Shown: positions 6,038 to 57,872, counted from the stretch's first letter. The stretch is 64,000 bases of DNA from Alphaproteobacteria bacterium (GCA_028822585.1 JAPKDL010000008.1:1256-65255); one strand, 5' to 3'. The notes: generated from the letters alone by a model not told the origin. Numbers and translations are program-made.

Positions 6038-7348
6038 TTAATCCAGCGCGCAGGTCCGGAACCCGGCAAAAGCATCATTTCGGTTAGGACCAAAATAGTT
6101 ACGATACTTTGCGTTGATCATGCGGCTTCGCGTAGTCCAAGCGCCACCGCGTAGCACTTTCGTATCATTGAAAAGGGGTGTGGAATATTCTTTGTAATCG
6201 TCGGGCGCGAATCCGTCGAAGGGCCGGAACGTGTCGCTGGTCCATTCCCAGACATTGCCAATCAACTGACGGCACCCCCAAGCGTTATCGCCTTTAGGAC
6301 AGGCGGCAGTATCAATGCAGCCCAATGCGAAGCCGTCAAGATTGGCGTGATCAGGGGTTGGGTCGTCATCGCCCCAGGGATAGGCATGTTTGTCCAGACC
6401 GCCCCCTTTGTTGGGCCGCATCGTTGCGGTGAATTCCCATTCCGCTTCCGTTGGCAACCGTCGGCTCGCCCAGCGGCAATAAGCATTTGCTTCAAACCAC
6501 GTGACATGTATTACCGGCGCGTCAGGTGCCATCGTCCGCCAGGTATCGAAGTGCCGCGTGTCCCATCCTTCGCCGCCATTGCCGCGCCAGTAAACAGGAT
6601 GCGTTGCGTTGACGTCGGTGCGCCACCGCCAGCCTTCCGGGGTCCATAAATCGGACCGGTCGTATCCATCATCGGCGATGAAGTCGGCGAACGCCTTGTT
6701 AGTGGTGGGAGTGAGCGCCATATGGAATGGCGTAACCAATATTTCATGCGCCCATTTTTCATTGTCGAAAAGAAATGGACTGTCGGGTTGTGACCCAAAA
6801 GCGAACGAGCCGCCGGGAATAGCCGCGTCACCGTCGAGGCTTCCTGTCGTGTTGTCGAGATACAAGCAGTTCGGGCGGTCTGGGGCGAATATTGGCGTTG
6901 GATAGCCATGGATTTGGCGCGCCGAGGTGAACGCTTCACAATGCATGTCTTCATGAAAAGTGGTGAATTGATAGAGATAACTCTCCCGTTCATCCGCTAA
7001 GCCTACGCCTAGGTGATCCACGAGCGTATCGAGCACTCGGGTCATATAATCGACCATTTCATCGAGCGGATACACAGGCAAATCCCATCTATTTTCATGC
7101 AGGATGGCTATTGAATCATAGAGCAGGTCGCCACGAGCTAATAGCGGTGCGTGGCCTAAGTGGCGACGCAAAATGAAAATTTCATAAAACCAGGCAACAT
7201 GCCCAATTTCCCAAATTAACGGGTTCACTGTGGGTAACTTTGGGCCAATTTGCTGTTCTTGCGTTAAACCCTGGATGAGTTCTAACGTGCGTTGACGTGC
7301 ACTTTGCATCATCGATATAAGTTTGGTCGTTTCAACAGGTACGGTCAT
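6038..7348 (-). CDS. senA: EgtB-type non-haem-iron sulfoxide/selenoxide synthase (DinB-like N-domain + FGE-like C-domain); candidate selenoneine synthase
   Basis: 3-His pattern IGHVAWF and FHEDMHCE (His52/134/138 in track numbering) as in EgtB. C-terminal FGE/SUMF1-like region (RGGAWTT, GFR). Sits head-to-head with a SenB-like glycosyltransferase. The symbol rests on context, not on an HMM score. Confidence 0.6.
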   Translation of the reverse strand: MTVPVETTKLISMMQSARQRTLELIQGLTQEQQIGPKLPTVNPLIWEIGHVAWFYEIFILRRHLGHAPLLARGDLLYDSIAILHENRWDLPVYPLDEMVDYMTRVLDTLVDHLGVGLADERESYLYQFTTFHEDMHCEAFTSARQIHGYPTPIFAPDRPNCLYLDNTTGSLDGDAAIPGGSFAFGSQPDSPFLFDNEKWAHEILVTPFHMALTPTTNKAFADFIADDGYDRSDLWTPEGWRWRTDVNATHPVYWRGNGGEGWDTRHFDTWRTMAPDAPVIHVTWFEANAYCRWASRRLPTEAEWEFTATMRPNKGGGLDKHAYPWGDDDPTPDHANLDGFALGCIDTAACPKGDNAWGCRQLIGNVWEWTSDTFRPFDGFAPDDYKEYSTPLFNDTKVLRGGAWTTRSRMINAKYRNYFGPNRNDAFAGFRTCALD

Positions 7349-7368
7349 GCTCACTCTTGGATGGTTTT

Positions 7369-8325
7369 ATGAAGATTAGCCTTGTTACGCCCGCGGGAAA
7401 ACAGTCTCGGTCCGGAAACCGTGCAACAGCGTCGCGTTGGGCGCGTATTTTTCGCGATCTTGGGCACAAAGTTGGTATTTACGTTGAAGATGATGGCGTA
7501 GATGCTGATATGATGGTAGCTGTTCATGCGTGGCGCAGCGCGGAATCGATAGACCGATTCGCTGCAATTCATCCGGACAGGCCACTGATTGTTCTCCTTT
7601 CAGGGACGGATATTTACCGATTTCAGGAGAGTCACCCGGAGCCAACCCATGCATCTATGGAAAAAGCGACGGCGTTGGTGTGCCTCCATGATTTGGTGCA
7701 CCGGGCGATTCCCGAACAATTTCATTCCAAACTCCATGTGATCCATCAATCGGCGCCGCCGTTGCCGCGTCCGCGTGCGCCATCCCGAAATACATTTGAT
7801 ATTTGCGTGGTTGGTCATTTGCGAGAGGAAAAGGATTCTCTGCGCACCGCGTTCGCTGCCCGATTGGCGCCGTCTGAATCCCGCTTGCGGGTGATCCATC
7901 TGGGCAAGGCGCATAACGATGAATGGGCGCGGGACGGGGCGGCGGAAGCCGCCGATAATCCCCGATATTTTTGGCGTGGGGAAACGCCGGGCTGGCAGGT
8001 GCGACGCATATTCTCTCAATGCCATGCGATGGTGATCAGTTCGCGTATGGAAGGTGGCGCGAATGTCGTGTCGGAAGCTGCCGCCGCGGGTTTGCCGGTT
8101 GTTGCGTCATATATCGATGGCAATGTGGGGCTCCTCGGAGGCGATTATGAAGGTTATTACCCGGTGGCGGATGAAGCGGCCTTGGCTAAAGTGCTGCACC
8201 GCGCGGAAACCGAGCCCGCGTTTTTAAAGCGCTTGGGCGAACAATGCCAAGCGCGCGCTTCGCTGTTTGAACCAGCGCTGGAACGTGCCGCATGGACACG
8301 ATTGCTTGCGACATTGACTAAATAA
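7369..8325 (+). CDS. senB: GT-B glycosyltransferase, candidate selenosugar synthase of the selenoneine pathway
   Basis: N-terminus reads MKISLVTPAGKQSRSGNRATASRWARIF. The C-terminal half is group-1 glycosyltransferase-like (EGGANVVSEAAAAGLPVV). The gene diverges from the EgtB-like gene with start codons 20 bp apart. Confidence 0.55.
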   Translation: MKISLVTPAGKQSRSGNRATASRWARIFRDLGHKVGIYVEDDGVDADMMVAVHAWRSAESIDRFAAIHPDRPLIVLLSGTDIYRFQESHPEPTHASMEKATALVCLHDLVHRAIPEQFHSKLHVIHQSAPPLPRPRAPSRNTFDICVVGHLREEKDSLRTAFAARLAPSESRLRVIHLGKAHNDEWARDGAAEAADNPRYFWRGETPGWQVRRIFSQCHAMVISSRMEGGANVVSEAAAAGLPVVASYIDGNVGLLGGDYEGYYPVADEAALAKVLHRAETEPAFLKRLGEQCQARASLFEPALERAAWTRLLATLTK

Positions 8326-8328
8326 AAA

Positions 8329-9825
8329 TTACTGCCGCTCCATCCTAGTTTGCAGTCGGAGACGGGCCCTGATCTGACGTGAAATTATATCGACCGCGAT
8401 GTTCAACAATGCGGTGACAAGTATTAAAAATACGGCGCGGTCAAAGCGAAGATCGGCGAAGGCGCTGTCGATATAAAACCCCAGCGTCGAGATGCCTAAT
8501 ATTCCCAGGATCGCGGTTTCCCGCATGATCACTTCCCAGCGGTAGAACAACAGCGCCAGCATTTGTCGATAGACGCGCGGTAGGATCTCGTAAGCGTAAC
8601 GGCGTATGCCCCGGCAGGCGTCGACCCGCAACGTAATGGCTTCGGTGTAGCGTCCCACCAGATGACCGATAATGCCGCCATTATGAAGCGCCAGCGCGAC
8701 AATCGCGGGCAACATCGATGGGCCCCAAAGCTGCAACAAAACGTATGCCAGAATATATTCGGGCGTAGATCGAATGATGACTAGGCAAGTATGGCCCAAG
8801 GTGCGGGCGGAACGCCCAAGCAACAGCGGCGAGATGAGTGGGAAGAATAGCAACGTTAACAGGCCGGAGCAGACAAGTGCGATCATCGTCAATTGAATGG
8901 TAATTGCTGCGCCCGGTAGGGCTTGCTCGAACAGCATTGTTTGTAGCCACTCGTTCAGTCGCGCCAAGGTCTCGCCGGTTTCCGCTGGCGCGGCGCGCAA
9001 GGGATACGGAACTATATCATGGGTTAAAAAGCGCCAGATATTGTCGGCGGTAAATGACAGGCCCCATGGAAGAATTGCAGCGGCGCCGATCAGATATACC
9101 GGTAAAGCGAAGCGACGCATCCAAACCCTCATACTGGCGATAATAAGGTAAAACAGAATCAATAACGCCGAAACCTCGGAGTACAAACCTTGGCTAAACG
9201 CTGATTCCAAATGAAAGCCCAGCGTTGGCAGGCCGACGAATCCTAACACGGCGCTCGACCGTAACCCGCATTCCAGTCGGTACATGGAATAGGTCGTGAA
9301 ATGCGCCCAGGCATCGGGCAATCGCACGAACAAAAACGCCGACATGCGCCCGGTGCTCGGCGGCATCGCCTGTAGCGGTGAAGGGTCGGCCTCCTCTAAT
9401 ATTTCCGCGTAGACCTTGGCGATAATCCCGGCATAGGGAATGCCAATTGCCAAAATCCCGGTTAGTGGCGATAAACCGAAGAGCTGCAGGAAGATCAACG
9501 CCCAGAACAATTCATGCACGGCGCGAACAAAGGCGCATCCCGTCCGAACGATTCGGCTAAAGAACAGCAACGATAATATGAACCCGAATACATTGCCGAA
9601 CGCGACGCCAAGCAACGCAAAGGCCAGAGTATAAGCCAGCGCACCGCCCAGGTTATCCGTTGCGTAAAAATCAGGCGTCACGACGCCATGCAACAACCGC
9701 GTAAGTTCTTGCCAGGGGTGGACTGTCGTGATTTCGAAATCGGCAAAAATTGCGCAAATCAGCGCTACGGCGATAAACGCCATTGTCGTCTTGGATAGGT
9801 TTGAAAAGGGGCGGCGTGTTTGCAC
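8329..9825 (-). CDS. PhnE-type ABC transporter permease, internally duplicated (two permease modules in one 498-aa protein)
   Basis: About twice the usual PhnE length, with two similar polytopic halves. It lies directly downstream of the ATPase and the PhnD-like binding protein. The start (GTG 9825 vs ATG 9783) is uncertain. Confidence 0.75.
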   Translation of the reverse strand: MQTRRPFSNLSKTTMAFIAVALICAIFADFEITTVHPWQELTRLLHGVVTPDFYATDNLGGALAYTLAFALLGVAFGNVFGFILSLLFFSRIVRTGCAFVRAVHELFWALIFLQLFGLSPLTGILAIGIPYAGIIAKVYAEILEEADPSPLQAMPPSTGRMSAFLFVRLPDAWAHFTTYSMYRLECGLRSSAVLGFVGLPTLGFHLESAFSQGLYSEVSALLILFYLIIASMRVWMRRFALPVYLIGAAAILPWGLSFTADNIWRFLTHDIVPYPLRAAPAETGETLARLNEWLQTMLFEQALPGAAITIQLTMIALVCSGLLTLLFFPLISPLLLGRSARTLGHTCLVIIRSTPEYILAYVLLQLWGPSMLPAIVALALHNGGIIGHLVGRYTEAITLRVDACRGIRRYAYEILPRVYRQMLALLFYRWEVIMRETAILGILGISTLGFYIDSAFADLRFDRAVFLILVTALLNIAVDIISRQIRARLRLQTRMERQ

Positions 9826-9843
9826 GAAATTCAGGCGTGTAAT

Positions 9844-10500
9844 TTAGGTGAAGTAGAGGTGATCCAAATCGCTTGGCGTCATGCCTGCGGTTGGTTCGTC
9901 CAGCACAATTCGACCATCCTTCAGCCCGATCAAACGATCCGCAAAATCGAGTGCGAGCGCGCGGTCATGCATGGCCAGAATACAGGTTTTTTTTCGCTCG
10001 CCCAGGACATCAAGAATCCGGCGTGCTTGATGTTCATCAACATTTGAAACCGGTTCGTCCCCCAGGACAATGTCGCCAGTATGAAACAATGCGCGGCCAA
10101 TGGCGGTTCGTTGCTGTTGACCACCGGACAATTCACCAACGGCGGTAAACAGCTTGTCGTCCAGGCGTAAACCGTCCACGACATCGCGCACCGCAGACAC
10201 ATCGCGGGCGACCGGGCGCAGGAGATTGTGTAAATTGCGCCAGACCGAGTGTTCGTGAAGTTGACCCATATAGACGTTGTGAAACACGGTCAGCGATTGA
10301 ACTAACCCGAATTCTTGCGGTATTAACGAGGCACGGTCCTGGCATTGCGCGTAAATCATACGCAGTAGCGTAGATTTTCCAACGCCGCTTGCGCCAACCA
10401 GGGCAATGCGCTCCTGGTCGGCGACGCGCAGCGTAACGCCACTAAGGACAGTTGCGCCGCGGTATCCCGCGTCTTCGTTGGTCAGTTCAATTACGGGCAT
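9844..10500 (-). CDS. ABC transporter ATP-binding protein (PhnC-like)
   Basis: Walker A GASGVGKST, signature LSGGQQQR and Walker B IVLGDEP. Confidence 0.85.
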   Translation of the reverse strand: MPVIELTNEDAGYRGATVLSGVTLRVADQERIALVGASGVGKSTLLRMIYAQCQDRASLIPQEFGLVQSLTVFHNVYMGQLHEHSVWRNLHNLLRPVARDVSAVRDVVDGLRLDDKLFTAVGELSGGQQQRTAIGRALFHTGDIVLGDEPVSNVDEHQARRILDVLGERKKTCILAMHDRALALDFADRLIGLKDGRIVLDEPTAGMTPSDLDHLYFT

Positions 10501-10514
10501 TTGAGTCGCTTACG

Positions 10515-11384
10515 TTAATCGATGAGTCCGATGGATCTTGCGACATCCTTGATGGGTTTGTAGTCCGAATTCGTCGCTGGAATAAAGCTGCTGCGCGGGA
10601 AGGCTTTCAACAAGTCTGGGTCTTTCATTGATAATAATGCGGCCCGTACCTTGTCCATGAAGCCGACGCTGAATGTTTTGTCGACATCGCCGCGAACGCT
10701 CCATTGATAATCTGGATAGGGCGGCGTGCGCCAGATGATTTTCACCTTTTTCAGATCGATCTTGCCTTCTTTCAATTCACGCTGCCAAACCTTGAAATTA
10801 ACAGCGCCGACCTTGTAACTACCGGATTGCACCAAGGCGATGGTGCGGGAGTGATCGCCGCTAAACCCGACCCGGTCGAATATTTTTCGCGGTGATTCGC
10901 CGAAGGATTCCCGGATGTGGAATTCCGGCATCAAACGACCTGACGTCGATCCTTTGGAGCCGAAGGTAAATGTCGTGCCTGCAATCCCTTTCGGGAACGC
11001 CTTGCCCTCTTTTAATCCAAGGCTAGCATGGGCGATGAAATAGGTCTCGAAGGCGCTGTCTTCCGCGCCTTGTGCAAGCGCCTGTGAACCTCGCACCAAC
11101 GCGCGGGCGCGAACGCCCGACAATCCCCCAAACCAGGCCAGCTGAACTTGATTGTTGCGAAACGCGGTGACGGCGGCGGCGTATGATTTTACCGGAATAT
11201 ACTTGGTTTCTACACCCAGGGTTGTCGACAAATAATTCGCCACTTTCCCAAAACGCTCGCGTAGCTGGCTTTCATCCTGATCGGGTATAGCGGTGAAGAC
11301 GAAAGGTTCCGCTATAGCTGTAACGCTAAATAGAGAAATTGTTAGAATAGTAGCAATTAGTGGGATGGTTCGGGTGCTTTGCAT
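10515..11384 (-). CDS. PhnD-family periplasmic substrate-binding protein (phosphonate/phosphite/possibly selenate-type)
   Basis: Signal peptide MQSTRTIPLIATILTISLFSVTAIA, then the PhnD-like core (FTAIPDQD..., GSKGSTSG). AAGGA lies 4 nt upstream of ATG 11384; the track start at 11429 lacks an SD. Confidence 0.8.
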   Translation of the reverse strand: MQSTRTIPLIATILTISLFSVTAIAEPFVFTAIPDQDESQLRERFGKVANYLSTTLGVETKYIPVKSYAAAVTAFRNNQVQLAWFGGLSGVRARALVRGSQALAQGAEDSAFETYFIAHASLGLKEGKAFPKGIAGTTFTFGSKGSTSGRLMPEFHIRESFGESPRKIFDRVGFSGDHSRTIALVQSGSYKVGAVNFKVWQRELKEGKIDLKKVKIIWRTPPYPDYQWSVRGDVDKTFSVGFMDKVRAALLSMKDPDLLKAFPRSSFIPATNSDYKPIKDVARSIGLID

Positions 11385-11809
11385 AACGTCCTTAATGGAG
11401 GGTTGTTTTTTGGTAAGGCAGAATTTCATACTGGCGTGTATTGGCGTTGTAAATGTATTTAACGATATTAATTTATATTGATCTGATTCAATCAGTCAGG
11501 TTAATTCGGCTAATATTGCCTCGCCTTTTATGGGGACTTCGCCATTGTTAGGTCGTCAAAACCGCACGGTAATTGAAATATTAGCTGCTTGCGCTGGACG
11601 GAGATCTTGATGAGCGCGACGCTGATCCTAGCTGCTGCTACACGTTATTAATTTATGAAGTAGTCGTGTCGTGCATTGGCTGCGTATTGAAGGGATCATT
11701 GACGAACTCTACGATGTAGTATGCTGGCCCGGCGTGTAACGCGCGATGTTAATTGGCTTTTGCACCCAAGAAATTTGCCGAGTCATCGGCATAGACCCCG
11801 CATCATGAC

Positions 11810-11828
11810 TTCAGTCAAAATTCAGTCA
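11810..11828 (+). promoter_or_regulatory. Tandem direct repeat TTCAGTCA-N3-TTCAGTCA just upstream of the crotonase RBS
   Basis: Read directly from the sequence. The repeat has an 11-bp period and ends 20 nt before ATG 11849. Function is unknown. Confidence 0.3.
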
Positions 11829-11848
11829 CCTAAAGAACGGAGTACACA

Positions 11849-12782: not shown

Positions 12783-15137
12783 TTGTCCGATATAGATGAC
12801 GCGCCATTTGCCAAATACGCTATAGGTCAATCTGTAGCGCGTTCCGAAGACCCCCGACTATTGCGCGGGGACGGCCGTTATTCCGATGATTTCAGTCTGC
12901 CAGGCCAAGCCTACGGTTATGTATTTCGCTCGCCGTTCGCCCATGGCGTGGTGACATCGCTGGATGTGGAGGATGCTCGCGCGGTGCCAGGCGTTCTGGC
13001 AGTGTTGACGTCAGTGGAAATGGCGGCAGCGAATATAGGGCCCTTGCCGAATACCCAACCGCATAAAAGCCGTGACGGAACACCGATGATCAAGCCGGAA
13101 CGTCCTGTGTTAGCAACGGACAAAGTGCGCTATCGCGGTCAGGCGGTCGCGATGATTGTGGCGGAATCGACGGCGGCGGCGAAGGATGCGGCTGAACTGA
13201 TCGAGTTCGACGTTGAGGTTTTACCTGCAGAAACTGACGCGGAAGACGCGATGCGCGACGGCGCGGCGCAATTGCACGACGAAGCGCCAGGCAATGTGGC
13301 GCTGGATTGGGAATTTGGCGATGGCGCTGAAGCCGACCGAATTTTCAAGTCGGCCCATCATGTGACAAGTTTAAAACTGCGCAGCAATCGCGTGGTAGTG
13401 GCGTCCATGGAGCCCCGCGCGGCGACGGCGGAATATAACGCCGCTGAAGAACGCTACACTCTTCATGTAGGCACCCAGGGCGTGTTCGGATTCCGCAATA
13501 TGTTGGCGGATCGTGTATTGGGGGTGGAGCGCGACAAGTTGCGGGTGCGCACTTACGATGTCGGCGGCTCGTTTGGTATGAAGTCCGGTCTGTATCCGGA
13601 ATATGCACCGTTGCTGGTGGCGTCGCGTTTGTTGGGGCGGCCCGTCAAATGGTGCGATGAACGCAGCGACAGTTTTTTATCGGATCAACACGGCAGGGAT
13701 TCCTGGGCCGATGCGTCGCTGGCATTTGACGAAGAAGGTCATATTTTGGCCGCACGTGTGGAATGCACCTGTAATTTAGGGGCCTATCTGACCGCGGCGG
13801 GTCCAAACATGCATACGGGCAATCTGGTAAAAAATTTCCCCGGCGTATATCGGCTGCCCATTTACCATGCGGCTACCAGGGCCGTATTTACCAACACCAC
13901 GCCAATCGGCGCCTATCGCGGTGCTGGACGTCCGGAAGGCGTCTATTATATGGAGCGGTTAATGGATAACGCCGCGCGTGAAATGGGCATGGACCGTGTT
14001 GAATTGCGGCGTCGAAACCTCATTCGCTCCGACGAAATGCCTTATGCGGCGATTTCAAACCTGACCTATGACAGCGGTGATTTTCCCGCCGTATTGGATT
14101 CCGGTTTGGCGCAGTCTGATTGGGCGGGTTTTGAATCCCGCCGTGCAGAATCCGCGAAGTCAGGCAAGCTGCGCGGTTTGGGAATTTCCTGCTACCTGGA
14201 AGTGACCGGGCCGCCCGCCACTGAAATGGGGGGCATCCGATTCGAAGATGACGGGCGCATTACGATGACTTCGGGTTCGCAGAATTACGGGCAGGGACAT
14301 GCGTCGACCTTCGCGCAAATTCTGGTCAGCAAATTGGGCGTTCCATTCGAACAACTTCAATTGGATCAAGGCGACAGCGATAAACTGTTGGCGGGGTCGG
14401 GCACCGGTGGGTCGAAGACTGTCATCACGGCGGGCAATGCGTTGGTTGTTGCGGCTGAAAAAGTCATCGAAAATGGTCGTATTTTGGCGGGGCAAGTCCT
14501 GGAGACGGCGACCGCCGACATTGAATTTACGGCGGGAGCATTCAGTGTTGCGGGGACGGACCGCGCGATCGACATTATGGAATTGTCCCGTGAAGCTCAT
14601 ACGATGAAACTTAACGGAAGCCTGCCCGAAGACGCGCCCGATGGGTTGGACGCCGCAATCACTGTTGATGACCCGCCGCCGCTGGCGTTTCCCAATGGGT
14701 GCCATGTCGCGGAAGTGGAAATCGATCCGGACACAGGCGAGACGGCATTGGCGCGCTATGTCGTGGTCGACGATTTCGGCGTCATGATCAATCCGATGCT
14801 GGTCGAAGGCCAAGTTCATGGAGGCATTGCGCAAGGTGTGGGCCAAGCGTTGATGGAAAATGTCGTGTACGATGCAGACGGGCAACCTATTTCAGGATCG
14901 TACATGGATTATACCATGCCACGCGCCCACGACATGCCAGACGTTGAATTCGGCGAGTATTCGGTGCCGGCGACGACCAATGTGCTGGGCGCCAAGGGCT
15001 GTGGCGAAGCGGGCACGACCGGGTCTTTACCCGCCGTCATGAACGCCATCGTCGATGTATTGAACCGGGAAAATGGGGTTGAGCATTTTGATATGCCCGC
15101 GACGTCGGAACGGGTCTGGTCCGCGCTGAACGGATAA
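12783..15137 (+). CDS. Xanthine dehydrogenase/CoxL-family molybdopterin-binding large subunit (form-II-like)
   Basis: 784 aa with the full aldehyde oxidase/XDH a/b-hammerhead and MoCo-binding domains. The active-site loop is AYRGAGRPEG, not the form-I CODH AYxCSFR. TTG start. Confidence 0.9.
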   Translation: MSDIDDAPFAKYAIGQSVARSEDPRLLRGDGRYSDDFSLPGQAYGYVFRSPFAHGVVTSLDVEDARAVPGVLAVLTSVEMAAANIGPLPNTQPHKSRDGTPMIKPERPVLATDKVRYRGQAVAMIVAESTAAAKDAAELIEFDVEVLPAETDAEDAMRDGAAQLHDEAPGNVALDWEFGDGAEADRIFKSAHHVTSLKLRSNRVVVASMEPRAATAEYNAAEERYTLHVGTQGVFGFRNMLADRVLGVERDKLRVRTYDVGGSFGMKSGLYPEYAPLLVASRLLGRPVKWCDERSDSFLSDQHGRDSWADASLAFDEEGHILAARVECTCNLGAYLTAAGPNMHTGNLVKNFPGVYRLPIYHAATRAVFTNTTPIGAYRGAGRPEGVYYMERLMDNAAREMGMDRVELRRRNLIRSDEMPYAAISNLTYDSGDFPAVLDSGLAQSDWAGFESRRAESAKSGKLRGLGISCYLEVTGPPATEMGGIRFEDDGRITMTSGSQNYGQGHASTFAQILVSKLGVPFEQLQLDQGDSDKLLAGSGTGGSKTVITAGNALVVAAEKVIENGRILAGQVLETATADIEFTAGAFSVAGTDRAIDIMELSREAHTMKLNGSLPEDAPDGLDAAITVDDPPPLAFPNGCHVAEVEIDPDTGETALARYVVVDDFGVMINPMLVEGQVHGGIAQGVGQALMENVVYDADGQPISGSYMDYTMPRAHDMPDVEFGEYSVPATTNVLGAKGCGEAGTTGSLPAVMNAIVDVLNRENGVEHFDMPATSERVWSALNG

Positions 15138-16865: not shown

Positions 16866-19136
16866 CTATTGGGCGTCGGAAATGCCTTTAAGGACAACGG
16901 GTGGCGACATCGGCAACTGGGTAAAACGGACAGACGTGGCACTGTCAATGGCGTTGGCGATGGCGGCCATTGGCGGGATAATCGGCGTTTCGCCTACACC
17001 GCGCACTCCATAAGGATGGGTTGGGTTTGGCACTTCAACGATAATAGCGTCGATCATCGGCAAATCTGACGCCACGGGAATGCGGTAATCAAGAAAGCCT
17101 GCATTTTCCAACTGGCCTTTGGCGTTATAAATATACTCCTCGTTTAACGCCCAGCCGACGCCTTGCACAGCACCGCCTTGAATTTGTCCTTCGACATAGG
17201 CGGGATGGATCGCTTTGCCCGCGTCTTGGGCTGCTGTGTAGCGCAGAACCTTGACGTGTCCGGTGTCTGGGTCGACTTCAACATCGACTAGATGGGTTCC
17301 AAAGCCTGGACCCGCGCCTTGTGCGTTGATTTCTGCATGGCCCGCGATGGGCCCTCCGGTTTTCCCCGCCACGATGGCGAGGTCACTTAGTGACATCGGT
17401 TCGAAATCGCCCGCATTGCTGCCTGCGGGACTGGCTTCGCCATCTTCCCATTCGACGGCGTCGACGGAAATATCCCAGATTTTAGCGGCGCGTTCGCGTA
17501 ATTCGTCCACCATGCTTCGGCATGCTTGCACCACGGCCATTCCGCTGGAGAATGTGGCGCGGCTCCCGCCGGTTAGGAAGGTGTACCCGATGGTGCTGGT
17601 GTCGCCAATGCGCGGGCGAACCTTGGACATATTGATGCCCAATTCTTCCGCCGCCATCATCGCCATGGACGCGCGGCTACCGCCAACGTCCGGGGTACCG
17701 ACAGTCAATTCGATGGTGCCATCCTCGTTCAGCAATAAGGAAGCGCTGGTTTCGCCACCAATATTGAACCAGAATCCGGACGCGACGCCCCGGCCTTGAT
17801 TGGGGCCCAACGGCATTTTGTAATGTTCAGTGTCCTTGACTGCGTTCAATGTTTCGATCAATCCAACAGGCCCGAACTTGGGACCATAGGCGGCGCGGGT
17901 GCCTTCTTTTGCGGCATTTTTCAGGCGTAATTCTACGGGGTCGATGTTCAATTTTTTGGCCAGTTCGTCGACCAGGGATTCGACTGCGTATTCGGATATC
18001 GGCGCGCCCGGAGCCCGGTAAGCTGCGACCTTGGGGCGGTTGGTGACGACGTCATAACCAATGACTTTGACATGTTCTAAATCATACGGGGCAAAGGCGC
18101 ACATGCAGCCCGGCTGTACTGGGGAGCCCGCATAGGCGCCCGCTTGAAATTTCAAAACGGCGGAGCCAGCGGTGATTGTGCCGTCGTTCTTTGCGCCAAT
18201 CTTAATGACCATGTTCGCGCCGGATGTTGGGCCCGTCGCGCGGAACAGATCAGTTCGCGGCATGACCATGTGGACCGGTTGGCAGGCGATGCGCGACAAC
18301 GCTAGCGCCAACGGTTCCAAATAAACAACCGTCTTGCCGCCAAAGCCGCCTCCTATTTCCGAGGAGGTGACGCGGATTTTGGAAATATCCATGCCCAGCA
18401 AACGGGCGCAATGGGCTCGCGCCACAAATTGCCCCTGTGTCGAACACCAAAGTTCCGCATAGCCGTCTTCGGAGACGCTGGCGGCGCAAGCATGCAATTC
18501 AATGTAGCCTTGATGAACGGGTTGGGTGTTGAATTCCCGCTCCAAAATGACATCAGCCTGTGCGAAGCCTTCGTCTATATCACCGATCTTGATTTCAATT
18601 CGCTTGGCGATATTGGAGGGTGTGTCGGGTTTAGGGTCCACGCCATCGGTGAATAATTTATCATGTAGGATGGGGGCGCTGGGCTCCATTGCTTCGACGA
18701 CATCGATGACGTGTGGCAAGACTTCGTAATCAACTTCGATGAGTGAGATGGCTTTTTCCGCAATGGTGGCACTGGTCGCGGCGACGGCGGCGAGCGCATG
18801 TCCGTCGTAAAGAACTTTGTCGCGTGCCATGAGGTTTTCGGACATGTCCTTGTAGTTCACCATCATTTCGCCTGCCGGAATGAATTCCGAAGACAATGCC
18901 GGGAAGTCCGCACTGGTGACGATAGCCTTCACACCCTGCAGTGCAGCGGCTTTCGAGGTGTCGATGGATTTGATTTTTGCGTGGGCGTGGGGGCTGCGCA
19001 ACACCGCGCCCGTCAACATGCCGGCTTTAAAGGTGTCGGCGCCAAATTTTGCGCGCCCTGTGACTTTGTCCACGCCATCGGGGCGAATTGGACGTGTGCC
19101 AACCCATTTCAATTCTTTTCCGTTGCCCTTGGACAT
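16866..19136 (-). CDS. Xanthine dehydrogenase/aldehyde oxidase-family molybdopterin-binding large subunit
   Basis: 756 aa. N-terminus WVGTRPIRPDGVDKVTGRAKF with a SPHAHAKI motif and the loop AAYRAPGAP. Confidence 0.9.
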   Translation of the reverse strand: MSKGNGKELKWVGTRPIRPDGVDKVTGRAKFGADTFKAGMLTGAVLRSPHAHAKIKSIDTSKAAALQGVKAIVTSADFPALSSEFIPAGEMMVNYKDMSENLMARDKVLYDGHALAAVAATSATIAEKAISLIEVDYEVLPHVIDVVEAMEPSAPILHDKLFTDGVDPKPDTPSNIAKRIEIKIGDIDEGFAQADVILEREFNTQPVHQGYIELHACAASVSEDGYAELWCSTQGQFVARAHCARLLGMDISKIRVTSSEIGGGFGGKTVVYLEPLALALSRIACQPVHMVMPRTDLFRATGPTSGANMVIKIGAKNDGTITAGSAVLKFQAGAYAGSPVQPGCMCAFAPYDLEHVKVIGYDVVTNRPKVAAYRAPGAPISEYAVESLVDELAKKLNIDPVELRLKNAAKEGTRAAYGPKFGPVGLIETLNAVKDTEHYKMPLGPNQGRGVASGFWFNIGGETSASLLLNEDGTIELTVGTPDVGGSRASMAMMAAEELGINMSKVRPRIGDTSTIGYTFLTGGSRATFSSGMAVVQACRSMVDELRERAAKIWDISVDAVEWEDGEASPAGSNAGDFEPMSLSDLAIVAGKTGGPIAGHAEINAQGAGPGFGTHLVDVEVDPDTGHVKVLRYTAAQDAGKAIHPAYVEGQIQGGAVQGVGWALNEEYIYNAKGQLENAGFLDYRIPVASDLPMIDAIIVEVPNPTHPYGVRGVGETPIIPPMAAIANAIDSATSVRFTQLPMSPPVVLKGISDAQ

Positions 19137-25026: not shown

Positions 25027-27369
25027 TCAAGCGTTTCCTTTGTTCATCGCGCGCCAGATTCGTTCCGGTGTGGCGGGCATGTCAATATGGGTGACGCCAA
25101 ATGGCGCCAATGCATCGACGACGGCGTTGATGACGGCGGGCAGGGCGGCGGTCGGTCCAGATTCGCCACAGCCCTTAACGCCGAGTGGGTTGGTTTCGCA
25201 ACGGGTCTCATTCACGGCCCAGTCGAAGTTGGGCAGTTCGCGCGCGCGCGGCGTCCAGTAATCCATGCCGGATCCGGTGATCAATTGTCCGTTGTCGGAA
25301 TCATAGACGCTTTCTTCATTCAACGCCTGACCGATGCCTTGCACGACGCCGCCATGCAATTGGCCTTCAACGAGCATTGGATTAATGACGACGCCGAAGT
25401 CGCTGACCATTTGATAGCGTGTAACGTCGACCATGCCGGTATCCTGGTCGATTTCCACCTCGCAGACATGGCAGCCGCACGGGAAGCTGTAGGTCCGCGC
25501 AACATAGTGATTGGCGGCTTCCAAACCCAGGCCTAAATCTTCGGGCACATTGACGTCGTTAAAGGACGCCACGGCGACCGCCGCCAAATCGATAGACCGG
25601 TCCGTGCCGGTGATGACGAATTGCCCGGACTCAAAAGCAATATCCTCCGTACTGGCTTCCATCATGCGAGCGGCAATCTGCTTGCCTTTATCGATGATCT
25701 CCAGGGCGCCGTAATGAATCGCGCCACCCGCGACCGTCGTGGTGCGCGATCCGCCAGACCCGGAGCCGGGGCCAATACGGTCGGTGTCGCCTTGGACCAC
25801 GGTAATGTTGTTGAACGGCAGGCCCAATTTGTCGGCAACAATCTGACTGAAGGTGGTTTTGTGCCCCTGCCCGTTAGTGTGCCCGGTTAAGGTCACGGTC
25901 AACTGACCGGTAGGGTCGAATTGCATGGAAACGCGATTGTCCTTGAAGCCATCCGGTTCGGTGTAGGTGGAAAACCCAAAGCCCAATAACTTACCGCGCG
26001 CTTTGGCGTCGGCGCGGCGGTCCTCCACCGACGCGCGTTCGGCGAGGGTTAGCGCTTCGTCCATGTTTCTGGCGAATTCACCACTGTCGTAGATCAATCC
26101 CATCGCGGTTGTGTAGGGAAAGTCTTCCACCGCCACCATGTTGGCGCGGCGCAACTCTGCGGGATCAGTGTCCAGTTCGCGCGCGGCGGCGTCCACCAGA
26201 CGTTCGACGATATAGCAGAATTCCGGCTTCCCTGCGCCGCGAAACGCCGCAATGGGAACGGTGTTGGTGAAGACACATTGGGTTTCCGCATGAACCGCGC
26301 CGATCCGGTAAACATTGGTCAGCATACGAGTGCCGCCTGCGGTCGGAATAATCGGCGCGCCGCCTGTCAGGTACGCGCCCATGTTGGAAACGGTCTGACA
26401 TCGCAGCGCTATAAATTTTCCGTCCGCGTCCAACGCCAATTCCCCATGCATTCGATGGTCGCGGGCGTGGTAGTCGGTAAGAAATCCATCGGTGCGTTCC
26501 GGATACCATTTGACCGCCCGGCCGATACGCTTCGCCGCCCAGGCCGCAACGATCTGTTCCGGGTACAGGCCATTCTTGATGCCAAACCCGCCGCCAACAT
26601 CGGGCGGGGTTACCACGCGGATTTTTTCGAGCGGCACCTGCACGCTTTTGGATAGGGCGGCGCGGATTTCATTGCTGCCTTGTGACGTGGTGTAAACGGT
26701 ATAGCGGTCTTCCAGAGAATCGTAGCGCGCGACAACCCCGCGTGGCTCTAACGCATTCACCATGATGCGATTGTTGACAACATCCAGCCGCGTAATGTGC
26801 GCCGCGCGCGAAAAGGCAGCGTCCACGGTCGCCTTGTCACCGGATTCCCAATCCAGCGCAACGTTGGATCCAAAATCCGGCCAGATCACCGTGTTAGCGG
26901 TATCTTTGGATTGGAGAGGATTGGTGACGCAGGGTAATTCTTCGTAATCAACGTCGATCAGGAGGGCGGCGTCTTCGGCTTGGATACGCGTTTCCGCCAG
27001 GACAACGGCAATTGTGTCGCCGACATAGCGGGCGCGGTCCGTCGCCATGGCGCGCCATACCGGCGCTTTGATGGGAGAGCCGTCCTTGTTTTTAACCGGA
27101 TACGCGGACGTCAGACGACCGATGCCGTCGGCGTCCAAATCAGCTCCCGTCAAAACAGCGACAACGCCCGCGGCCACAGCCGCAGAGGATATATCAATAC
27201 GTGTGATGACGGCGTGCGCATGTGGCGAGCGCAGGAAATGCGCATGGGTTTGCCCCGGCATGTTGATGTCGTCAATGAACTGACCAACGCCGCGCAAAAG
27301 CGCATCATCCTCAATCCGGACGACCGAACGCCCTATCCCAACCTGTGCTGCAGTTGCGCCGTTACTCAC
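25027..27369 (-). CDS. Xanthine dehydrogenase/CoxL-family molybdopterin-binding large subunit (variant loop AFRGAGKPE)
   Basis: 780 aa, collinear with the 12783-15137 product (IGRSVVRIEDDALLRG, SPHAHA, GGGFG). Confidence 0.9.
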   Translation of the reverse strand: MSNGATAAQVGIGRSVVRIEDDALLRGVGQFIDDINMPGQTHAHFLRSPHAHAVITRIDISSAAVAAGVVAVLTGADLDADGIGRLTSAYPVKNKDGSPIKAPVWRAMATDRARYVGDTIAVVLAETRIQAEDAALLIDVDYEELPCVTNPLQSKDTANTVIWPDFGSNVALDWESGDKATVDAAFSRAAHITRLDVVNNRIMVNALEPRGVVARYDSLEDRYTVYTTSQGSNEIRAALSKSVQVPLEKIRVVTPPDVGGGFGIKNGLYPEQIVAAWAAKRIGRAVKWYPERTDGFLTDYHARDHRMHGELALDADGKFIALRCQTVSNMGAYLTGGAPIIPTAGGTRMLTNVYRIGAVHAETQCVFTNTVPIAAFRGAGKPEFCYIVERLVDAAARELDTDPAELRRANMVAVEDFPYTTAMGLIYDSGEFARNMDEALTLAERASVEDRRADAKARGKLLGFGFSTYTEPDGFKDNRVSMQFDPTGQLTVTLTGHTNGQGHKTTFSQIVADKLGLPFNNITVVQGDTDRIGPGSGSGGSRTTTVAGGAIHYGALEIIDKGKQIAARMMEASTEDIAFESGQFVITGTDRSIDLAAVAVASFNDVNVPEDLGLGLEAANHYVARTYSFPCGCHVCEVEIDQDTGMVDVTRYQMVSDFGVVINPMLVEGQLHGGVVQGIGQALNEESVYDSDNGQLITGSGMDYWTPRARELPNFDWAVNETRCETNPLGVKGCGESGPTAALPAVINAVVDALAPFGVTHIDMPATPERIWRAMNKGNA

Positions 27370-38407: not shown

Positions 38408-38640
38408 GCGGGGGATGGGCGTCGTTGGCGTCGCCACTTCAACTTTTCGCGTCACATCCCTGAAGGTGGAAGCTTAGGAAGTCGATGAGGCGTCAGGAAT
38501 TTGCTGGAATTAGATACTGTGCCGCCAGAATTGGCGGAACTCGCCCTCAGTCGTTCATCGGCACCGTCTCATTCCCCCCCTTGCTCGGGTCAAGCCTAGG
38601 CAAGACGGGGCGGCGGAGCCGGGCTCCGGTTCATCCCCCG

Positions 38641-39345
38641 CTAGGTCTCGCCGTTCAGACTCTGCCGCTGCTGGCCGTCCGCGTCGAAATTGTTGGGGCT
38701 GAGCCAGGCCTCGAAGTTAGCCTTCAACGCTGGCCATTCCGTATCGAGGATTGAGAACCAGTCGGTGTCACGGTTGCGGCCTTTATAGGTGGTGGCCTGG
38801 CGGAACCGGCCTTCATAGGTAAAGCCGAGCCGTGTGGCCGCGTTGCGTGAGGGTTCGTTGTATGAATCGCATTTCCATTCATAACGCCGATAACCCAATT
38901 CCTCGAAGACGCGCCGCATAAGCAAATACATGGTTTCGGTTGCGAGCTGCGTGCGTTGCAACGCGGGGCCGTAGTGAATATCACCAACTTCAATGCACCC
39001 AACGGCAGCGTCGATGCGCATCAGCGAGGCGACGCCCAGCGCTTTGTCTGTCGTGCGGTCAATAATCGTGTGGTATAGGCGTTCGTTGTTTGTCTCACTT
39101 TGGCGGCACCAGTCCTGGAAGGGCGTGAATTCGGTGAAGGGTTCATAGGATAAATAGGTCCACCCCACCCCCGTTTCGTCGACGGCGAAGGCGTCATATA
39201 AATCCTGCGCGTGCTTGTCGGCGTCCAGGGGCTCCAACCTGCACCAATGGCCGTCGAGGGGGCTTCTGGGGGGAAATGTCGCTGGCGTCCAGTCAGGAAC
39301 AGGCGCGCCGATGGGTTGTCCCAATGAATTAGTGTGAATGGTCAT
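38641..39345 (-). CDS. GNAT-family N-acetyltransferase (RimJ/RimL-like)
   Basis: Acetyltransf_3-like core (GVASLMRID, QRTQLATE, LGYRRYEWKCDSYNEPSRNAATRLGF). Start choice (39345 vs 39405) is uncertain. Confidence 0.75.
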   Translation of the reverse strand: MTIHTNSLGQPIGAPVPDWTPATFPPRSPLDGHWCRLEPLDADKHAQDLYDAFAVDETGVGWTYLSYEPFTEFTPFQDWCRQSETNNERLYHTIIDRTTDKALGVASLMRIDAAVGCIEVGDIHYGPALQRTQLATETMYLLMRRVFEELGYRRYEWKCDSYNEPSRNAATRLGFTYEGRFRQATTYKGRNRDTDWFSILDTEWPALKANFEAWLSPNNFDADGQQRQSLNGET

Positions 39346-39463
39346 TGTTTTGTGGCTCTTGAAGGTTGATGTTAACACACACTTTAACGATGGTTCTGAA
39401 GACATAGAAGGTCCAATGTGGTGGATTTTCCGGGTGCCAATTTGGATATCGGGGAAAAAGATT

Positions 39464-40267
39464 ATGAATGATAACGAATGGATAGATCCTTACGAAGGTT
39501 TTGTTTATCAAGAGGACACGATCACAATTGCGACCGTAGATCAGAACAAGGCCTTAATTGCCTGCGGCGTCGACCCGGCGCTGTACGATGGCAAGGCCGA
39601 CCCCTCGTTCTTTATATCCGAAGCGATTCGCGCGGGTGTCCGCAGCGGCATCACGTCGAACGGCAACGTCAACATGCTGCAATCCCTGGTGCAACACCGA
39701 CCGGTTGTTCTGGATGAGCCCTTGCGGGTTCAAGGCCAGATCACGGCGGTGCAGGCGGTGGCGCGGGGCCGGACCATCGACACGGATGTGTGGTTCGAAG
39801 GCGCCGATGGCGCACGGGCGATAACCGCCAAACGACGGACCTTGAAGCCCGGTCCCGACAAAGCCGGTACCGTTAATGCTGGCGGCGGCGCAGGGGAACG
39901 GCCGGCACCTATTGTTGAAGACCCGTTGGCATTGAACAATGTTGGCGACCACGCCCTGACGCCAGGCGGTGTGCTGGCGTATAGCTCCGAAGGCAATAGC
40001 ATCCATTTTGAGCCGGAGGCCGCGCGAAAGGCGGGGTTCCGCGCGCCGATCATCGGCGGCGGCATGGGGGTGCATTATTTGGTGGCGGCGCTCTGGGCGC
40101 ATGGAGAACCCGCAGGACCCGCCGAACTCGACCTCGATATTTATTTCCGGCGCCCCGTGTTCTGGGATGATGCCTTTAGCGTGCGGGTGGATGCGGACTG
40201 GCGCGTGATTTGTCTTGAAAAGGGCGGCAAGGTCTTGACCGAAGCCCGGTTGAATAGGGTCAGTTAA
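39464..40267 (+). CDS. Double-hotdog (MaoC-dehydratase-like) protein with a degenerate hydratase motif
   Basis: The C-terminal half has SSEGNSIHFEPEAARKAGFRAPIIGG, compared with the MaoC consensus SGDxNPIHxDPExA...GF..PIaHG. The N-terminal half has hotdog-like beta-strand periodicity. GGGGAAAAAG lies upstream of ATG 39464. Confidence 0.55.
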   Translation: MNDNEWIDPYEGFVYQEDTITIATVDQNKALIACGVDPALYDGKADPSFFISEAIRAGVRSGITSNGNVNMLQSLVQHRPVVLDEPLRVQGQITAVQAVARGRTIDTDVWFEGADGARAITAKRRTLKPGPDKAGTVNAGGGAGERPAPIVEDPLALNNVGDHALTPGGVLAYSSEGNSIHFEPEAARKAGFRAPIIGGGMGVHYLVAALWAHGEPAGPAELDLDIYFRRPVFWDDAFSVRVDADWRVICLEKGGKVLTEARLNRVS

Positions 40268-40270
40268 ACC

Positions 40271-41041
40271 GTGGTGAAAATTGATATAGGCAACCGTTTT
40301 TTGTTCAACCTGCTGGCCATTGCGGGGGTGGTGTTGGTGTTCTATGCCCTGGCATTTTCAGGGTTGGGCCCCGCATGGCGGGCGCAAGGCGGGCCGCTGC
40401 TGTATCTCGTCGCCGTGGCCGGGGCGGGGTTGTTGCTGGTGTCGGTCGTGTTCCTGATCGCCAAACGCACTGGCCTTGGGTCGCCCCGAATATGGTTCAT
40501 CGCCCATGTGATCGCGGCGACGGTGGGATTTGTGCTGGTGTCAATACACGCCGCCGGGTCGTTTTTCGAAGCCCCCGCGGTTTTGTTGGCGGTACTGGTG
40601 GGATTGATGGGGTTGGGCGTGTGGGCGCGGGTGCGGGCGGCGAATCTTATGGCCGGAACCTTCGCGACCAAGCGCGGTGGGTTCGCAGCCGCCGACCCGG
40701 AATTGATGGGTCGAATGCGTCGCTTGATTGAAGAAAAGAGAGCCGTGCTGGCGCGTCTGGACCCGAATGCGTCGGAAGCGTTGTTTTCGGTGACGTTGGG
40801 GCATTGGCTGCGGCACCCCGGTTTGGCGGTGGCGTATCATAAGCTGGCCCGTACCGAGGAAGGCCTCGTCGGAGCGCGGCAATCCGTTGGCGCCGCGCAG
40901 GCGTGGTGGCGGTCGCTGCATATGGCGCTGGCGGGACTATTTATCGCGGGCTTGATAACCCATATTGTCGTGGTGACGTTTTTCGCAGGTTATGTCGCGG
41001 AAGGCCGGGATATTTATTGGTGGCACTTGGCGGCTTGGTAA
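40271..41041 (+). CDS. Integral membrane protein, 5 predicted TM helices, candidate di-haem b-type cytochrome (H-x13-H in TM3 and TM5)
   Basis: His79/His93 (FIAHVIAATVGFVLVSIHAAG) and His217/His231 (LHMALAGLFIAGLITHIVV). A basic ~95-aa loop separates TM4 and TM5. The GTG start is 3 nt after the upstream stop. The CDS call is solid; the haem function is inference. Confidence 0.6.
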   Translation: MVKIDIGNRFLFNLLAIAGVVLVFYALAFSGLGPAWRAQGGPLLYLVAVAGAGLLLVSVVFLIAKRTGLGSPRIWFIAHVIAATVGFVLVSIHAAGSFFEAPAVLLAVLVGLMGLGVWARVRAANLMAGTFATKRGGFAAADPELMGRMRRLIEEKRAVLARLDPNASEALFSVTLGHWLRHPGLAVAYHKLARTEEGLVGARQSVGAAQAWWRSLHMALAGLFIAGLITHIVVVTFFAGYVAEGRDIYWWHLAAW

Positions 41042-57107: not shown

Positions 57108-57872
57108 TTGTTTGGCCTGCCATTCGAGATGCTCTTATTCCTTTGCGGTGCGACGGTGCTCGCGGCCACGCTGCAAACGGCGACAGGTATCGGCTTTGGT
57201 TTGATTGCGGGGCCGTTTGTGTTGATGGCTATACAAGGACGCGACGCCATCGAAGTCACCGCGTTGTTGAGCCTATTGATCACCTTGGTTCTCGCGCCGA
57301 AATTACTGCCTGACGTCAATCGGCGGGACTTAGTGAATTTGACGATTGGGTGCGCCGTGGGTTTGCCCGCCGGGTTGCTGGTCTATCTGTATGCCGATGC
57401 GTTTTATTTGAAGCTGGGCGCGGCGATAGTGATCTTAATGGTTCTGGGCATGATGTTTTTTCCGATTCGCGCAGCCGCCGGGCACACAGGAAAATTTGAA
57501 CGGTCCGGTGGCGTGCTGGCCGGGGTGGCGGCGGGCGTGTTGGGCACCTGTTTGGCGATGCCAGGGCCAGTGGCGGCGGTTTTTCTGGTTCGCCAGGGCC
57601 GGGGCAAAGCCGTTGTCCGGGCGACAATGTTGACGTTCTTCGTCTTCGCGTTGGGCGCGGCGCTGGCGTTGCAAGTTATTGTCGATGGGCTGCCCACCAG
57701 GGTTATGGAGGTTTCCGCGGTTCTGGCCCCGGCCTGTATCGTTGGCCTTGTTATGGGCAATTATTTAGTGACGAGGGTGAGTGAAAAGGCATTTCAGCGA
57801 CTGCTGCAAGTGGTCCTTGCAGGGACGGTGTTGAGCTTGCTGGTGTCGTCATACGGCGACTTAAATCTTTAA
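57108..57872 (+). CDS. TauE/SafE (TSUP) family anion exporter
   Basis: Eight hydrophobic segments in a duplicated 4-TM arrangement. TTG start 12 nt after the ACR3 stop. Confidence 0.75.
   Translation: MFGLPFEMLLFLCGATVLAATLQTATGIGFGLIAGPFVLMAIQGRDAIEVTALLSLLITLVLAPKLLPDVNRRDLVNLTIGCAVGLPAGLLVYLYADAFYLKLGAAIVILMVLGMMFFPIRAAAGHTGKFERSGGVLAGVAAGVLGTCLAMPGPVAAVFLVRQGRGKAVVRATMLTFFVFALGAALALQVIVDGLPTRVMEVSAVLAPACIVGLVMGNYLVTRVSEKAFQRLLQVVLAGTVLSLLVSSYGDLNL

Follow-up and report, generated by a model that had tools for sequence, protein, structure and literature searches.

The DNA considered here is a 64,000-nucleotide stretch from an Alphaproteobacteria bacterium (GCA_028822585.1, JAPKDL010000008.1:1256-65255; "the window" below), in which positions 6038 to 11384 carry five genes that together resemble a selenoneine (sen) island from which the gene for selenium activation has been deleted. 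An earlier note on this DNA had described the same five open reading frames (ORFs), and re-reading placed each of them exactly where that note had put it. The first, senA (6038-7348, minus strand), is predicted to encode a hercynine-type selenoneine (selenoxide) synthase of 436 aa counted from an ATG, or 438 aa from a GTG at 7354. A 20-bp spacer (7349-7368), read off the sequence, separates its start codon from that of the divergent senB (7369-8325, plus strand), which would encode a selenosugar synthase (Se-glycosyltransferase) of 318 aa with the N-terminus MKISLVTPAGKQSRSGNRATASRWARIF. Three minus-strand transporter genes converge on senB: a fused double PhnE-type ATP-binding cassette (ABC) permease (8329-9825; 498 aa as an ORF, 484 aa according to gene finders), a PhnC-like ABC ATPase (9844-10500; 218 aa, Pfam ABC_tran) and a periplasmic substrate-binding protein of the TIGR04553 (putative selenate) family (10515-11384; 289 aa, Pfam Phosphonate-bd). 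The stop codons of senB and the permease gene are only 3 bp apart, and the 33 bp at 8296-8328, which consist of the divergent last 30 bp of senB and that 3-bp gap, are the scar of the deletion described below. This senB/permease junction is not an assembly artefact, because two independently assembled metagenomes, L085 and L087, contain it as well, with 99.8-99.9% identity.

The two enzymes are placed by family models. The 6038-7348 product has the Pfam domains DinB_2 and FGE-sulfatase and the motifs IGHVAWF and FHEDMHCE; it scores 459.3 bits on the NCBIfam SenA model (NF041186, cut-off 420) and 309.2 bits on the EgtB model, under the cut-off of 360. The 7369-8325 product (Pfam Glycos_transf_1) scores 403.4 bits on the SenB model TIGR04348 (cut-off 300) and matches the solved Ramlibacter SenB (8k5u) with 196 bits. 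The proposal that these proteins are of SenA and SenB type, which the earlier note had offered subject to just such model searches, thus held, and in the case of SenA the active-site residues (below) concur. Mutagenesis of SenB has pointed to N20, T23, H58, R61, T85, R155, K158, E231 and E239 as selenophosphate-binding or catalytic residues, with Lys158 catalytic, N20, H58, R61, T83, T85 and R155 forming the selenophosphate pocket, and E231, in the sequence EGGAHV, binding the sugar (PMC10891094). The equivalents in the window protein are N17, T20, H53, R56, T80, R152, K155, E228 and E236, so all nine are conserved; T83 is replaced by S78, and E228 lies in EGGANV. Conservation of these pocket and catalytic residues argues that the enzyme would still require selenophosphate, and hence a SelD.

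We collected related loci by a scan with a SenB profile, keeping one genome per species, which gave 80 loci, mostly from marine alphaproteobacterial metagenome-assembled genomes (MAGs). The closest, L001, is from a Rhodospirillaceae MAG and has a SenB 88% identical to that of the window. Divergent senA and senB genes, which had been thought unusual, are the standard layout in this group (68 of the 80 loci, with a commonest spacer of 22 bp); in four others, all Vreelandella/Halomonas-group genomes or MAGs, an OvsA gene lies downstream of senB, and eight have no senA. The start codons of senA and senB are about 20-25 bp apart in the window and in related divergent loci, and each promoter must therefore sit inside the coding sequence of the partner gene. 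Promoter-like sites are not enriched in the window (5 seen versus 5.9 expected) and give no above-chance signal in the senA/senB spacer, terminator-like sites are weakly enriched and lie mostly within genes, and the same checks for regulatory signals found no Rfam matches and no tRNAs. The eight SenB loci with no senA within reach (L008, L010, L011, L014, L018, L022, L030 and L042) form one subclade; most of them have SenB together with the oxidoreductase-SelD fusion described next, and several have the transporter, while L030 is too short to reveal either. They may be islands with a selenosugar as end product.

In 50 of the 80 loci senB and the permease gene flank a full-length gene, on the transporter strand, for a 754-777 aa oxidoreductase-SelD fusion, and 4-5 further copies are cut by contig ends. 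Its N-terminal half matches TIGR03169 ("Nterm_to_SelD", 493.7 bits versus a cut-off of 310), and its C-terminal half matches the selD model TIGR00476 (298.3 versus 125). In these relatives the importer operon runs on into the fusion gene, which stands tail to tail with senB, and the ancestral order of the island was thus uptake, reduction and activation, SenB, SenA. The gene is absent from the window. At the P0004 locus (L091/L092), whose SenB is 75% identical to that of the window, synteny extends across the whole neighbourhood: the window and L091/L092 both have, in order, genes for a TctC-like protein, TctA, a thiamine-diphosphate enzyme, senA, senB, the permease, the ATPase, the binding protein, an enoyl-CoA hydratase and a molybdenum hydroxylase, and in L091/L092 senB and the permease gene are further separated by genes with Pyr_redox_2 and AIRS/AIRS_C domains. 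In blastn alignments the 33 bp at 8296-8328 of the window stand for 2,290 bp of L091 (10928-13217). The deletion is common to L090 (SenB 84% identical) and L001, with recognisably homologous junctions. In the SenB tree the window and L001 are sisters, nested in a clade in which all other sufficiently long loci have SelD. Because syntenic relatives hold the gene where the window has 33 bp, the missing selD is a lineage-specific, derived deletion of the oxidoreductase-SelD gene; because the same SelD-less junction is found in three diverged lineages (SenB 84-88% identical), the deletion is old.

The fusion gene is in various states elsewhere. In L091/L092, the closest relative that bears SelD (L091:10947-13213, with the same coordinates in L092), it is split into ORFs of 431 aa and 340 aa by a frameshift in the glycine-rich Cys/Lys loop of SelD, AMRCGGCGAKVG. 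This split form is present in two JGI samples, and the protein database has further instances of its 340-aa part; the two ORFs may work as separate genes, or their separation may be a first step of decay. Only the oxidoreductase half stands beside senB in L032, L036 and L071 (for example L036:10963-12111), with no SelD domain within reach, and neither half is found in L041, L045 and a Reyranella-rich clade. Since separate clades keep half or none of the fusion, there have been at least three losses of SelD from the locus. In all, it is missing from about 25 of the 80 loci, in agreement with the published count, in which both partners were found within 5 kb of only 827 of 2,353 TIGR04348 genes (Kayrouz et al. 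2022). The absence of selD that had been remarked on as unusual is therefore real, and a deletion in this lineage, but SelD-less sen loci as such are common.

The importer is less easily assigned than the enzymes. Its binding protein scores 373.4 bits on TIGR04553, the putative selenate-binding protein model (cut-off 250), and 121.1 bits on PhnD (TIGR03431), under the cut-off of 261, and so falls on the selenate side of the comparison that the earlier note had suggested. The permease matches the NCBIfam PhnE model in two stretches, as a duplicated permease would (215.7 bits versus a cut-off of 216.7), and the best NCBIfam match of the ATPase is PhnC, at 144.6 bits under the cut-off of 266. The same transporter is present in 35 of the 80 SenB loci, usually on the same strand as the oxidoreductase-SelD gene and immediately upstream of it, and the permease gene is kept next to those for the binding protein and ATPase in 33. 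It occurs beside both sen and ovs clusters, in Alphaproteobacteria as well as Gammaproteobacteria. The closest solved structures to the binding protein are two picocyanobacterial PhnD1 proteins, 7S6G from Synechococcus MITS9220 (221.5 bits) and 5LQ5 from Prochlorococcus MIT9301 (187.9 bits), and both also clear the TIGR04553 cut-off of 250 (334.2 and 297.3 bits, respectively). The measured ligands of PhnD1 are phosphite (Kd 0.67-2.8 µM for three Synechococcus proteins) and then phosphate, bound more weakly, and methylphosphonate; the authors of that work considered that the phosphite affinity might be fortuitous, since the cells cannot use phosphite. Selenium compounds do not appear in the main text of either PhnD1 study, and our literature search found no published selenium-binding data for any TIGR04553 member and no link between PhnD and selenium.

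These homologues raise the alternative that the ABC system imports phosphite or phosphate, as picocyanobacterial PhnD1CE does, and that its place beside the sen genes has nothing to do with selenium supply. All direct ligand contacts of PhnD1 (Y44, S124, T125, S126, H156, D203 and Y204) are identical in the window protein, as are the capping residues D11 and N174, and the differences are confined to the second shell: T65 is Ser in the window protein, as it is in Prochlorococcus, and S123 is Gly. Position 123 is Gly in 28 sen/ovs-linked binding proteins out of 28 (27 loci and the window) and Ser or Asn in PhnD1, and in the tree the sen/ovs-linked proteins form a separate clade, sister to PhnD1 and about 43% identical to it (39-43% for the window protein). 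Linkage to SenB in 35 of 80 loci, usually just upstream of the oxidoreductase-SelD gene, would moreover be pointless for phosphorus import, and the transporter accompanies both sen and ovs clusters in two classes. We therefore consider a phosphorus importer unlikely. The "selenate" label of the family is a computational inference, and it is the gene context that assigns the system to selenium: because the transporter forms an operon with the oxidoreductase-SelD gene and is found in sen and ovs islands of two proteobacterial classes, a selenium oxyanion is its most likely physiological ligand. As to which one, a conserved Asp of the binding pocket acts as a hydrogen-bond acceptor. The contrast between phosphate- and sulfate-binding proteins indicates that an Asp acceptor disfavours a fully deprotonated tetrahedral anion, and selenite is a pyramidal XO3 anion that resembles phosphite. 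Given the Asp and the phosphite-type pocket, we hypothesize that selenite or hydrogen selenite would fit better than selenate. Of the dedicated selenium oxyanion importer proposed earlier, then, the family annotation stands, and its force is reduced by the phosphite and phosphate binders that clear the same cut-off.

Between the window and L001, both SelD-less, the ratio of nonsynonymous to synonymous substitution rates (dN/dS) is 0.06 for senA, 0.08 for senB, 0.06 for the permease, 0.04 for the ATPase and 0.10 for the binding protein, compared with 0.05 and 0.03 for flanking housekeeping genes; these figures are approximate, as dS is 0.9-1.9 and near saturation. The five genes are thus under strong purifying selection, and neutral decay since the deletion is ruled out. 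Because the values of 0.04-0.10 are in the same range as those of the flanking housekeeping genes, the island appears to have stayed functional after SelD was lost.

The opposite possibility is that the island is a decaying remnant that makes no selenium compound now that SelD is gone and will itself be lost in time. Such a course would be in keeping with the stepwise series of states of the fusion gene, intact in most relatives, frameshifted at the active-site loop of SelD in L091/L092 and fully deleted in the window, L090 and L001, and with the loss of further neighbouring genes between those for the binding protein and the enoyl-CoA hydratase. It is improbable, however, since the five genes are intact and full length, with dN/dS of 0.04-0.10 between two SelD-less lineages as far apart as a dS of about 1, and since the deletion, shared by three diverged lineages, is old. 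The neighbouring losses were observed as follows: the window at 11385-11848 is without a 194-aa gene and a DUF4915 gene that are present in L090 (14020-15979) and L091 (16264-19918), where they lie between the binding-protein and enoyl-CoA hydratase genes, and in L001 a stretch of 61 residues is left of the 194-aa gene. These losses suggest that the surroundings of the island are still being streamlined. As a possible part of the island the 194-aa gene, which in L090 and L091 lies upstream of that for the binding protein, was considered and rejected, as it is not conserved.

Neither the AIRS/AIRS_C domains of SelD nor the Methyltransf_33 domain of EgtD turned up in Pfam scans of 40 further window ORFs; for the genes at the right-hand end of the window and for 9.2 kb past it, precomputed Pfam assignments were used. 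That extension comes from a contig 99.8% identical to the right end of the window, and the 9.2 kb hold only catabolic genes, with neither selD nor egtD among them. Searches by tblastn with two SelD fusion proteins (E≤10) returned only noise. On the left, the contigs that could be matched through the thiamine-diphosphate enzyme were all shorter than the window, so that the span examined is the 64-kb window plus 9.2 kb, or 73 kb. The co-located SelD-type SenC that characterizes a sen cassette is not found in this span, and the earlier observation that the 64 kb encode no selD/senC and no egtD is borne out by the Pfam scans and, for selD, by tblastn. The lack of egtD had been listed as unusual as well, and here we differ: egtD is usually encoded away from sen clusters (Kayrouz et al. 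2022).

A search of the protein database with the SelD of this closest SelD-bearing relative, L091/L092, as a hunt for a relocated copy, returned only sen-linked copies or a copy from an organism of higher G+C content. Of the candidates, P0125 (81% identical to L091-type SelD) was rejected because it is another sen-linked locus in a seemingly error-prone assembly, and P0122 (83%) because the fusion is truncated and frameshifted and its contig, labelled 1x, has a G+C content of 64.5%, compared with 56% in the window, and so comes from another organism. At L094:1-1418, on a contig with 64.5% G+C and a 1x label, a fusion-type SelD with 83% identity to that of L091 precedes genes for a phosphodiesterase and a Macro-domain protein, not senB; fusion-type SelD therefore also occurs outside sen islands in other organisms.

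The simplest and most likely reading of the gap is that a SelD encoded elsewhere in the genome supplies selenophosphate, as has been described for some ovs clusters, whose genes are "separated chromosomally in some cases" (PMC11030361). One might instead suppose that the lineage has no SelD at all, in which case SenB would have to be supplied with activated selenium, or sulfur, by a donor that does not depend on SelD or by another enzyme, or the pathway would have come to serve another purpose, such as the handling of a different chalcogen. Such a route would accommodate three observations: at least three clades have independently lost the SelD of the locus and still keep senA and senB, the retained genes of the window lineage are under purifying selection, and the 73 kb examined have no selD. 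A distal selD is the simpler solution and the one with precedent (PMC11030361), however, the residues of the SenB selenophosphate pocket are conserved, and thioglucose is a very poor SenA substrate in vitro (Kayrouz et al. 2022); a SelD-free lineage is accordingly hard to credit, if anything harder than a decaying island.

There remains the nature of the EgtB-like enzyme. Its score on the SenA model cannot decide between SenA and OvsA, the selenoxide synthase of ovs clusters, because the genuine Vreelandella utahensis OvsA (L054:11018-12376), included as a control, clears the same cut-off (428.1 versus 420). Among solved structures, the best matches by sequence to the window protein are in fact OvsA (288 and 280 bits), followed by EgtB (221) and the SenA of Variovorax paradoxus (195). 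The higher-scoring OvsA entry is an engineered YNF variant that prefers hercynine, and OvsA outscores V. paradoxus SenA because of a segment of about 50 residues (query 314-363) that is common to the window protein, OvsA and EgtB and missing from V. paradoxus SenA. We therefore turned to individual residues, in an alignment of the window protein with 52 proteins from related loci and the three solved enzymes. The composite motif of the window protein is H50, H84, H132, H136, Y385, Y388, N417, Y418 and F419, and the same positions read HHHHYYNFF in V. paradoxus SenA, HHHHYMQAY in OvsA and HRHHYYNWD in EgtB. The three-His iron triad H50/H132/H136 and the catalytic Y385 align with the iron ligands and the catalytic Tyr of EgtB, SenA and OvsA. 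H84 and F419 occupy the positions of the EgtB thiol-binding pair Arg87/Asp416, which SenA replaces with His and Phe/Tyr (Kayrouz et al. 2022), as expected of an enzyme that uses a selenosugar. Choice between histidine C5 and hercynine C2 is switched by M401/Q430/A431 in OvsA versus Y366/N395/F396 in SenA (PMC11030361). The window protein has Y388/N417/Y418 here, rather than the histidine-binding Met401/Gln430/Ala431 of OvsA, with a conservative aromatic Phe-to-Tyr change at the last position (Phe396 in V. paradoxus); 18 of the aligned sequences (17 relatives and the window) have N-Y-F, and 27 have N-F-F.

Other comparisons agree. The TIGR04373 signature, which covers the C-terminal 50 residues, scores 83.6 bits with the window protein and 44.6 with OvsA, which fails the cut-off of 71, and the window protein is 35% identical to V. 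utahensis OvsA and 45-83% identical to the divergent SenA proteins of other loci. Pfam scans of the window and the 9.2-kb extension found no OvsM-type methyltransferase near the locus; the sole methyltransferase of the window (57869-59491, 540 aa) is of the Methyltransf_11/25 type, not EgtD, and lies 50 kb away. By its active-site residues, rather than its model score, the 6038-7348 product is a putative SenA of the hercynine type, and an EgtD would therefore be required somewhere. That the island instead holds an OvsA and makes ovoselenol from histidine would explain the missing egtD, and the OvsA structure scores and the permissive SenA cut-off are what speak for it, but the SenA-type specificity residues, the TIGR04373 result, the low identity to OvsA, the absence of OvsM and the explanation of the OvsA score by a single segment make it very improbable, and an OvsA identity was rejected on the residue-level test.

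Taken together, these findings lead us to view the locus, with a probability of about 0.7, as a sen island of the published type, in an uncultured marine Rhodospirillaceae-like alphaproteobacterium, that has kept its carbon-selenium enzymes and importer and lost its own selenium-activating gene. The pathway would run as follows. The binding protein, ATPase and fused permease would import a selenium oxyanion, as the gene context suggests; the selenium would be reduced, and a SelD with its gene somewhere beyond the 73 kb examined would turn it into selenophosphate; SenB, to judge from its family and conserved catalytic residues, would join selenophosphate and a UDP-sugar to give a selenosugar; and SenA, whose active site has the hercynine-binding residues, would couple the selenosugar to C2 of hercynine to give selenoneine. 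The hercynine would be supplied by an EgtD whose gene, as with most sen clusters, is located elsewhere. Several points weigh against this view: the closest characterised homologues of the binding protein, the PhnD1 proteins, bind phosphite and phosphate and have the same first-shell pocket; the window and its 9.2-kb extension hold no selD, so that the SelD on which the pathway depends is assumed; egtD is not seen there either; and the dN/dS values are approximate. The selenoneine locus with a selenium importer that the earlier note inferred is thus upheld as regards the SenA/SenB pair and the adjacent TIGR04553-family system, and selenate is a putative ligand. The pathway, the neighbouring transporter and the off-site egtD had all been published, and the island itself adds little to them.

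Comparison with known systems shows where the island fits. Like senABC of V. paradoxus and Amycolatopsis palatopharyngis (Kayrouz et al. 2022), it combines SenA and SenB types that have the defining residues in their active sites with an adjacent putative selenate transporter (already reported to co-localise with a subset of sen clusters) and, as in most, an egtD that is presumably elsewhere. It differs in that senC has been removed from the locus by deletion, in that senA and senB are divergent rather than collinear (divergence being the norm in its SenB subfamily), in the segment of about 50 residues and the Tyr for Phe396 in SenA noted above, and in that the SenC equivalent of its relatives is the 754-777 aa fusion. 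That fusion (TIGR03169 plus TIGR00476), which fills the deleted position in relatives, is presumed to be the SenC of this subfamily; it is gone in the window, frameshift-split in L091/L092 and reduced to its N-terminal half in L032, L036 and L071. A paper on the engineering of SenC is silent on natural fusions. With the ovs cluster of Halomonas (Vreelandella) utahensis (Kayrouz et al. 2024) the island has in common a SenB-type protein (58% identical), a transporter of the same family (binding protein 57-59% identical) and an EgtB-family selenoxide synthase that clears the same NCBIfam SenA model; that synthase, however, is 35% identical, has M401/Q430/A431 where the window has Y/N/Y, is encoded downstream of senB rather than divergently, and is accompanied by OvsM, which the window locus lacks. 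Picocyanobacterial PhnD1-PhnC-PhnE (7S6G, 5LQ5) belongs to the same NCBIfam family, TIGR04553, and has identical contact and capping residues, whereas the sen-linked sister clade has Gly123 where PhnD1 has Ser or Asn and sits in selenium-metabolism operons.

Elsewhere, the window encodes three paralogous molybdopterin-binding large subunits of the xanthine-dehydrogenase/CO-dehydrogenase family, of 784, 756 and 780 aa (12783-15137, plus strand; 16866-19136 and 25027-27369, both minus strand), none of which has an adjacent gene for a FAD-binding or [2Fe-2S] subunit. The first, just past the sen island, has syntenic counterparts in L090 and L091. Within 39338-41041 are two ORFs of 309 and 256 aa that match nothing in Pfam or NCBIfam and lie immediately upstream of the gene for a 996-aa 4Fe-4S dicluster/molybdopterin oxidoreductase fusion (41059-44049), and the 930 bp before the two ORFs (38408-39337) contain no ORF of 100 aa or more.

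As the series of fused, split and deleted oxidoreductase-SelD genes shows, a sen island can easily lose its own source of selenophosphate, and genome searches that start from selD, like the one behind the original discovery, will therefore overlook a sizeable fraction of selenoneine producers. If the genome of this lineage proved to have no selD at all, the SelD losses, at least three and independent, would mark a repeated switch to an alternative route. The SenA model accepts OvsA, and "selenoneine synthase" annotations may therefore conceal ovoselenol producers; three active-site residues are needed to tell the two apart, and the TIGR04373 signature also separates them. Finally, selenite or selenate, if it were the ligand of the sen-linked binding proteins and of PhnD1, might lead to a reinterpretation of PhnD1.

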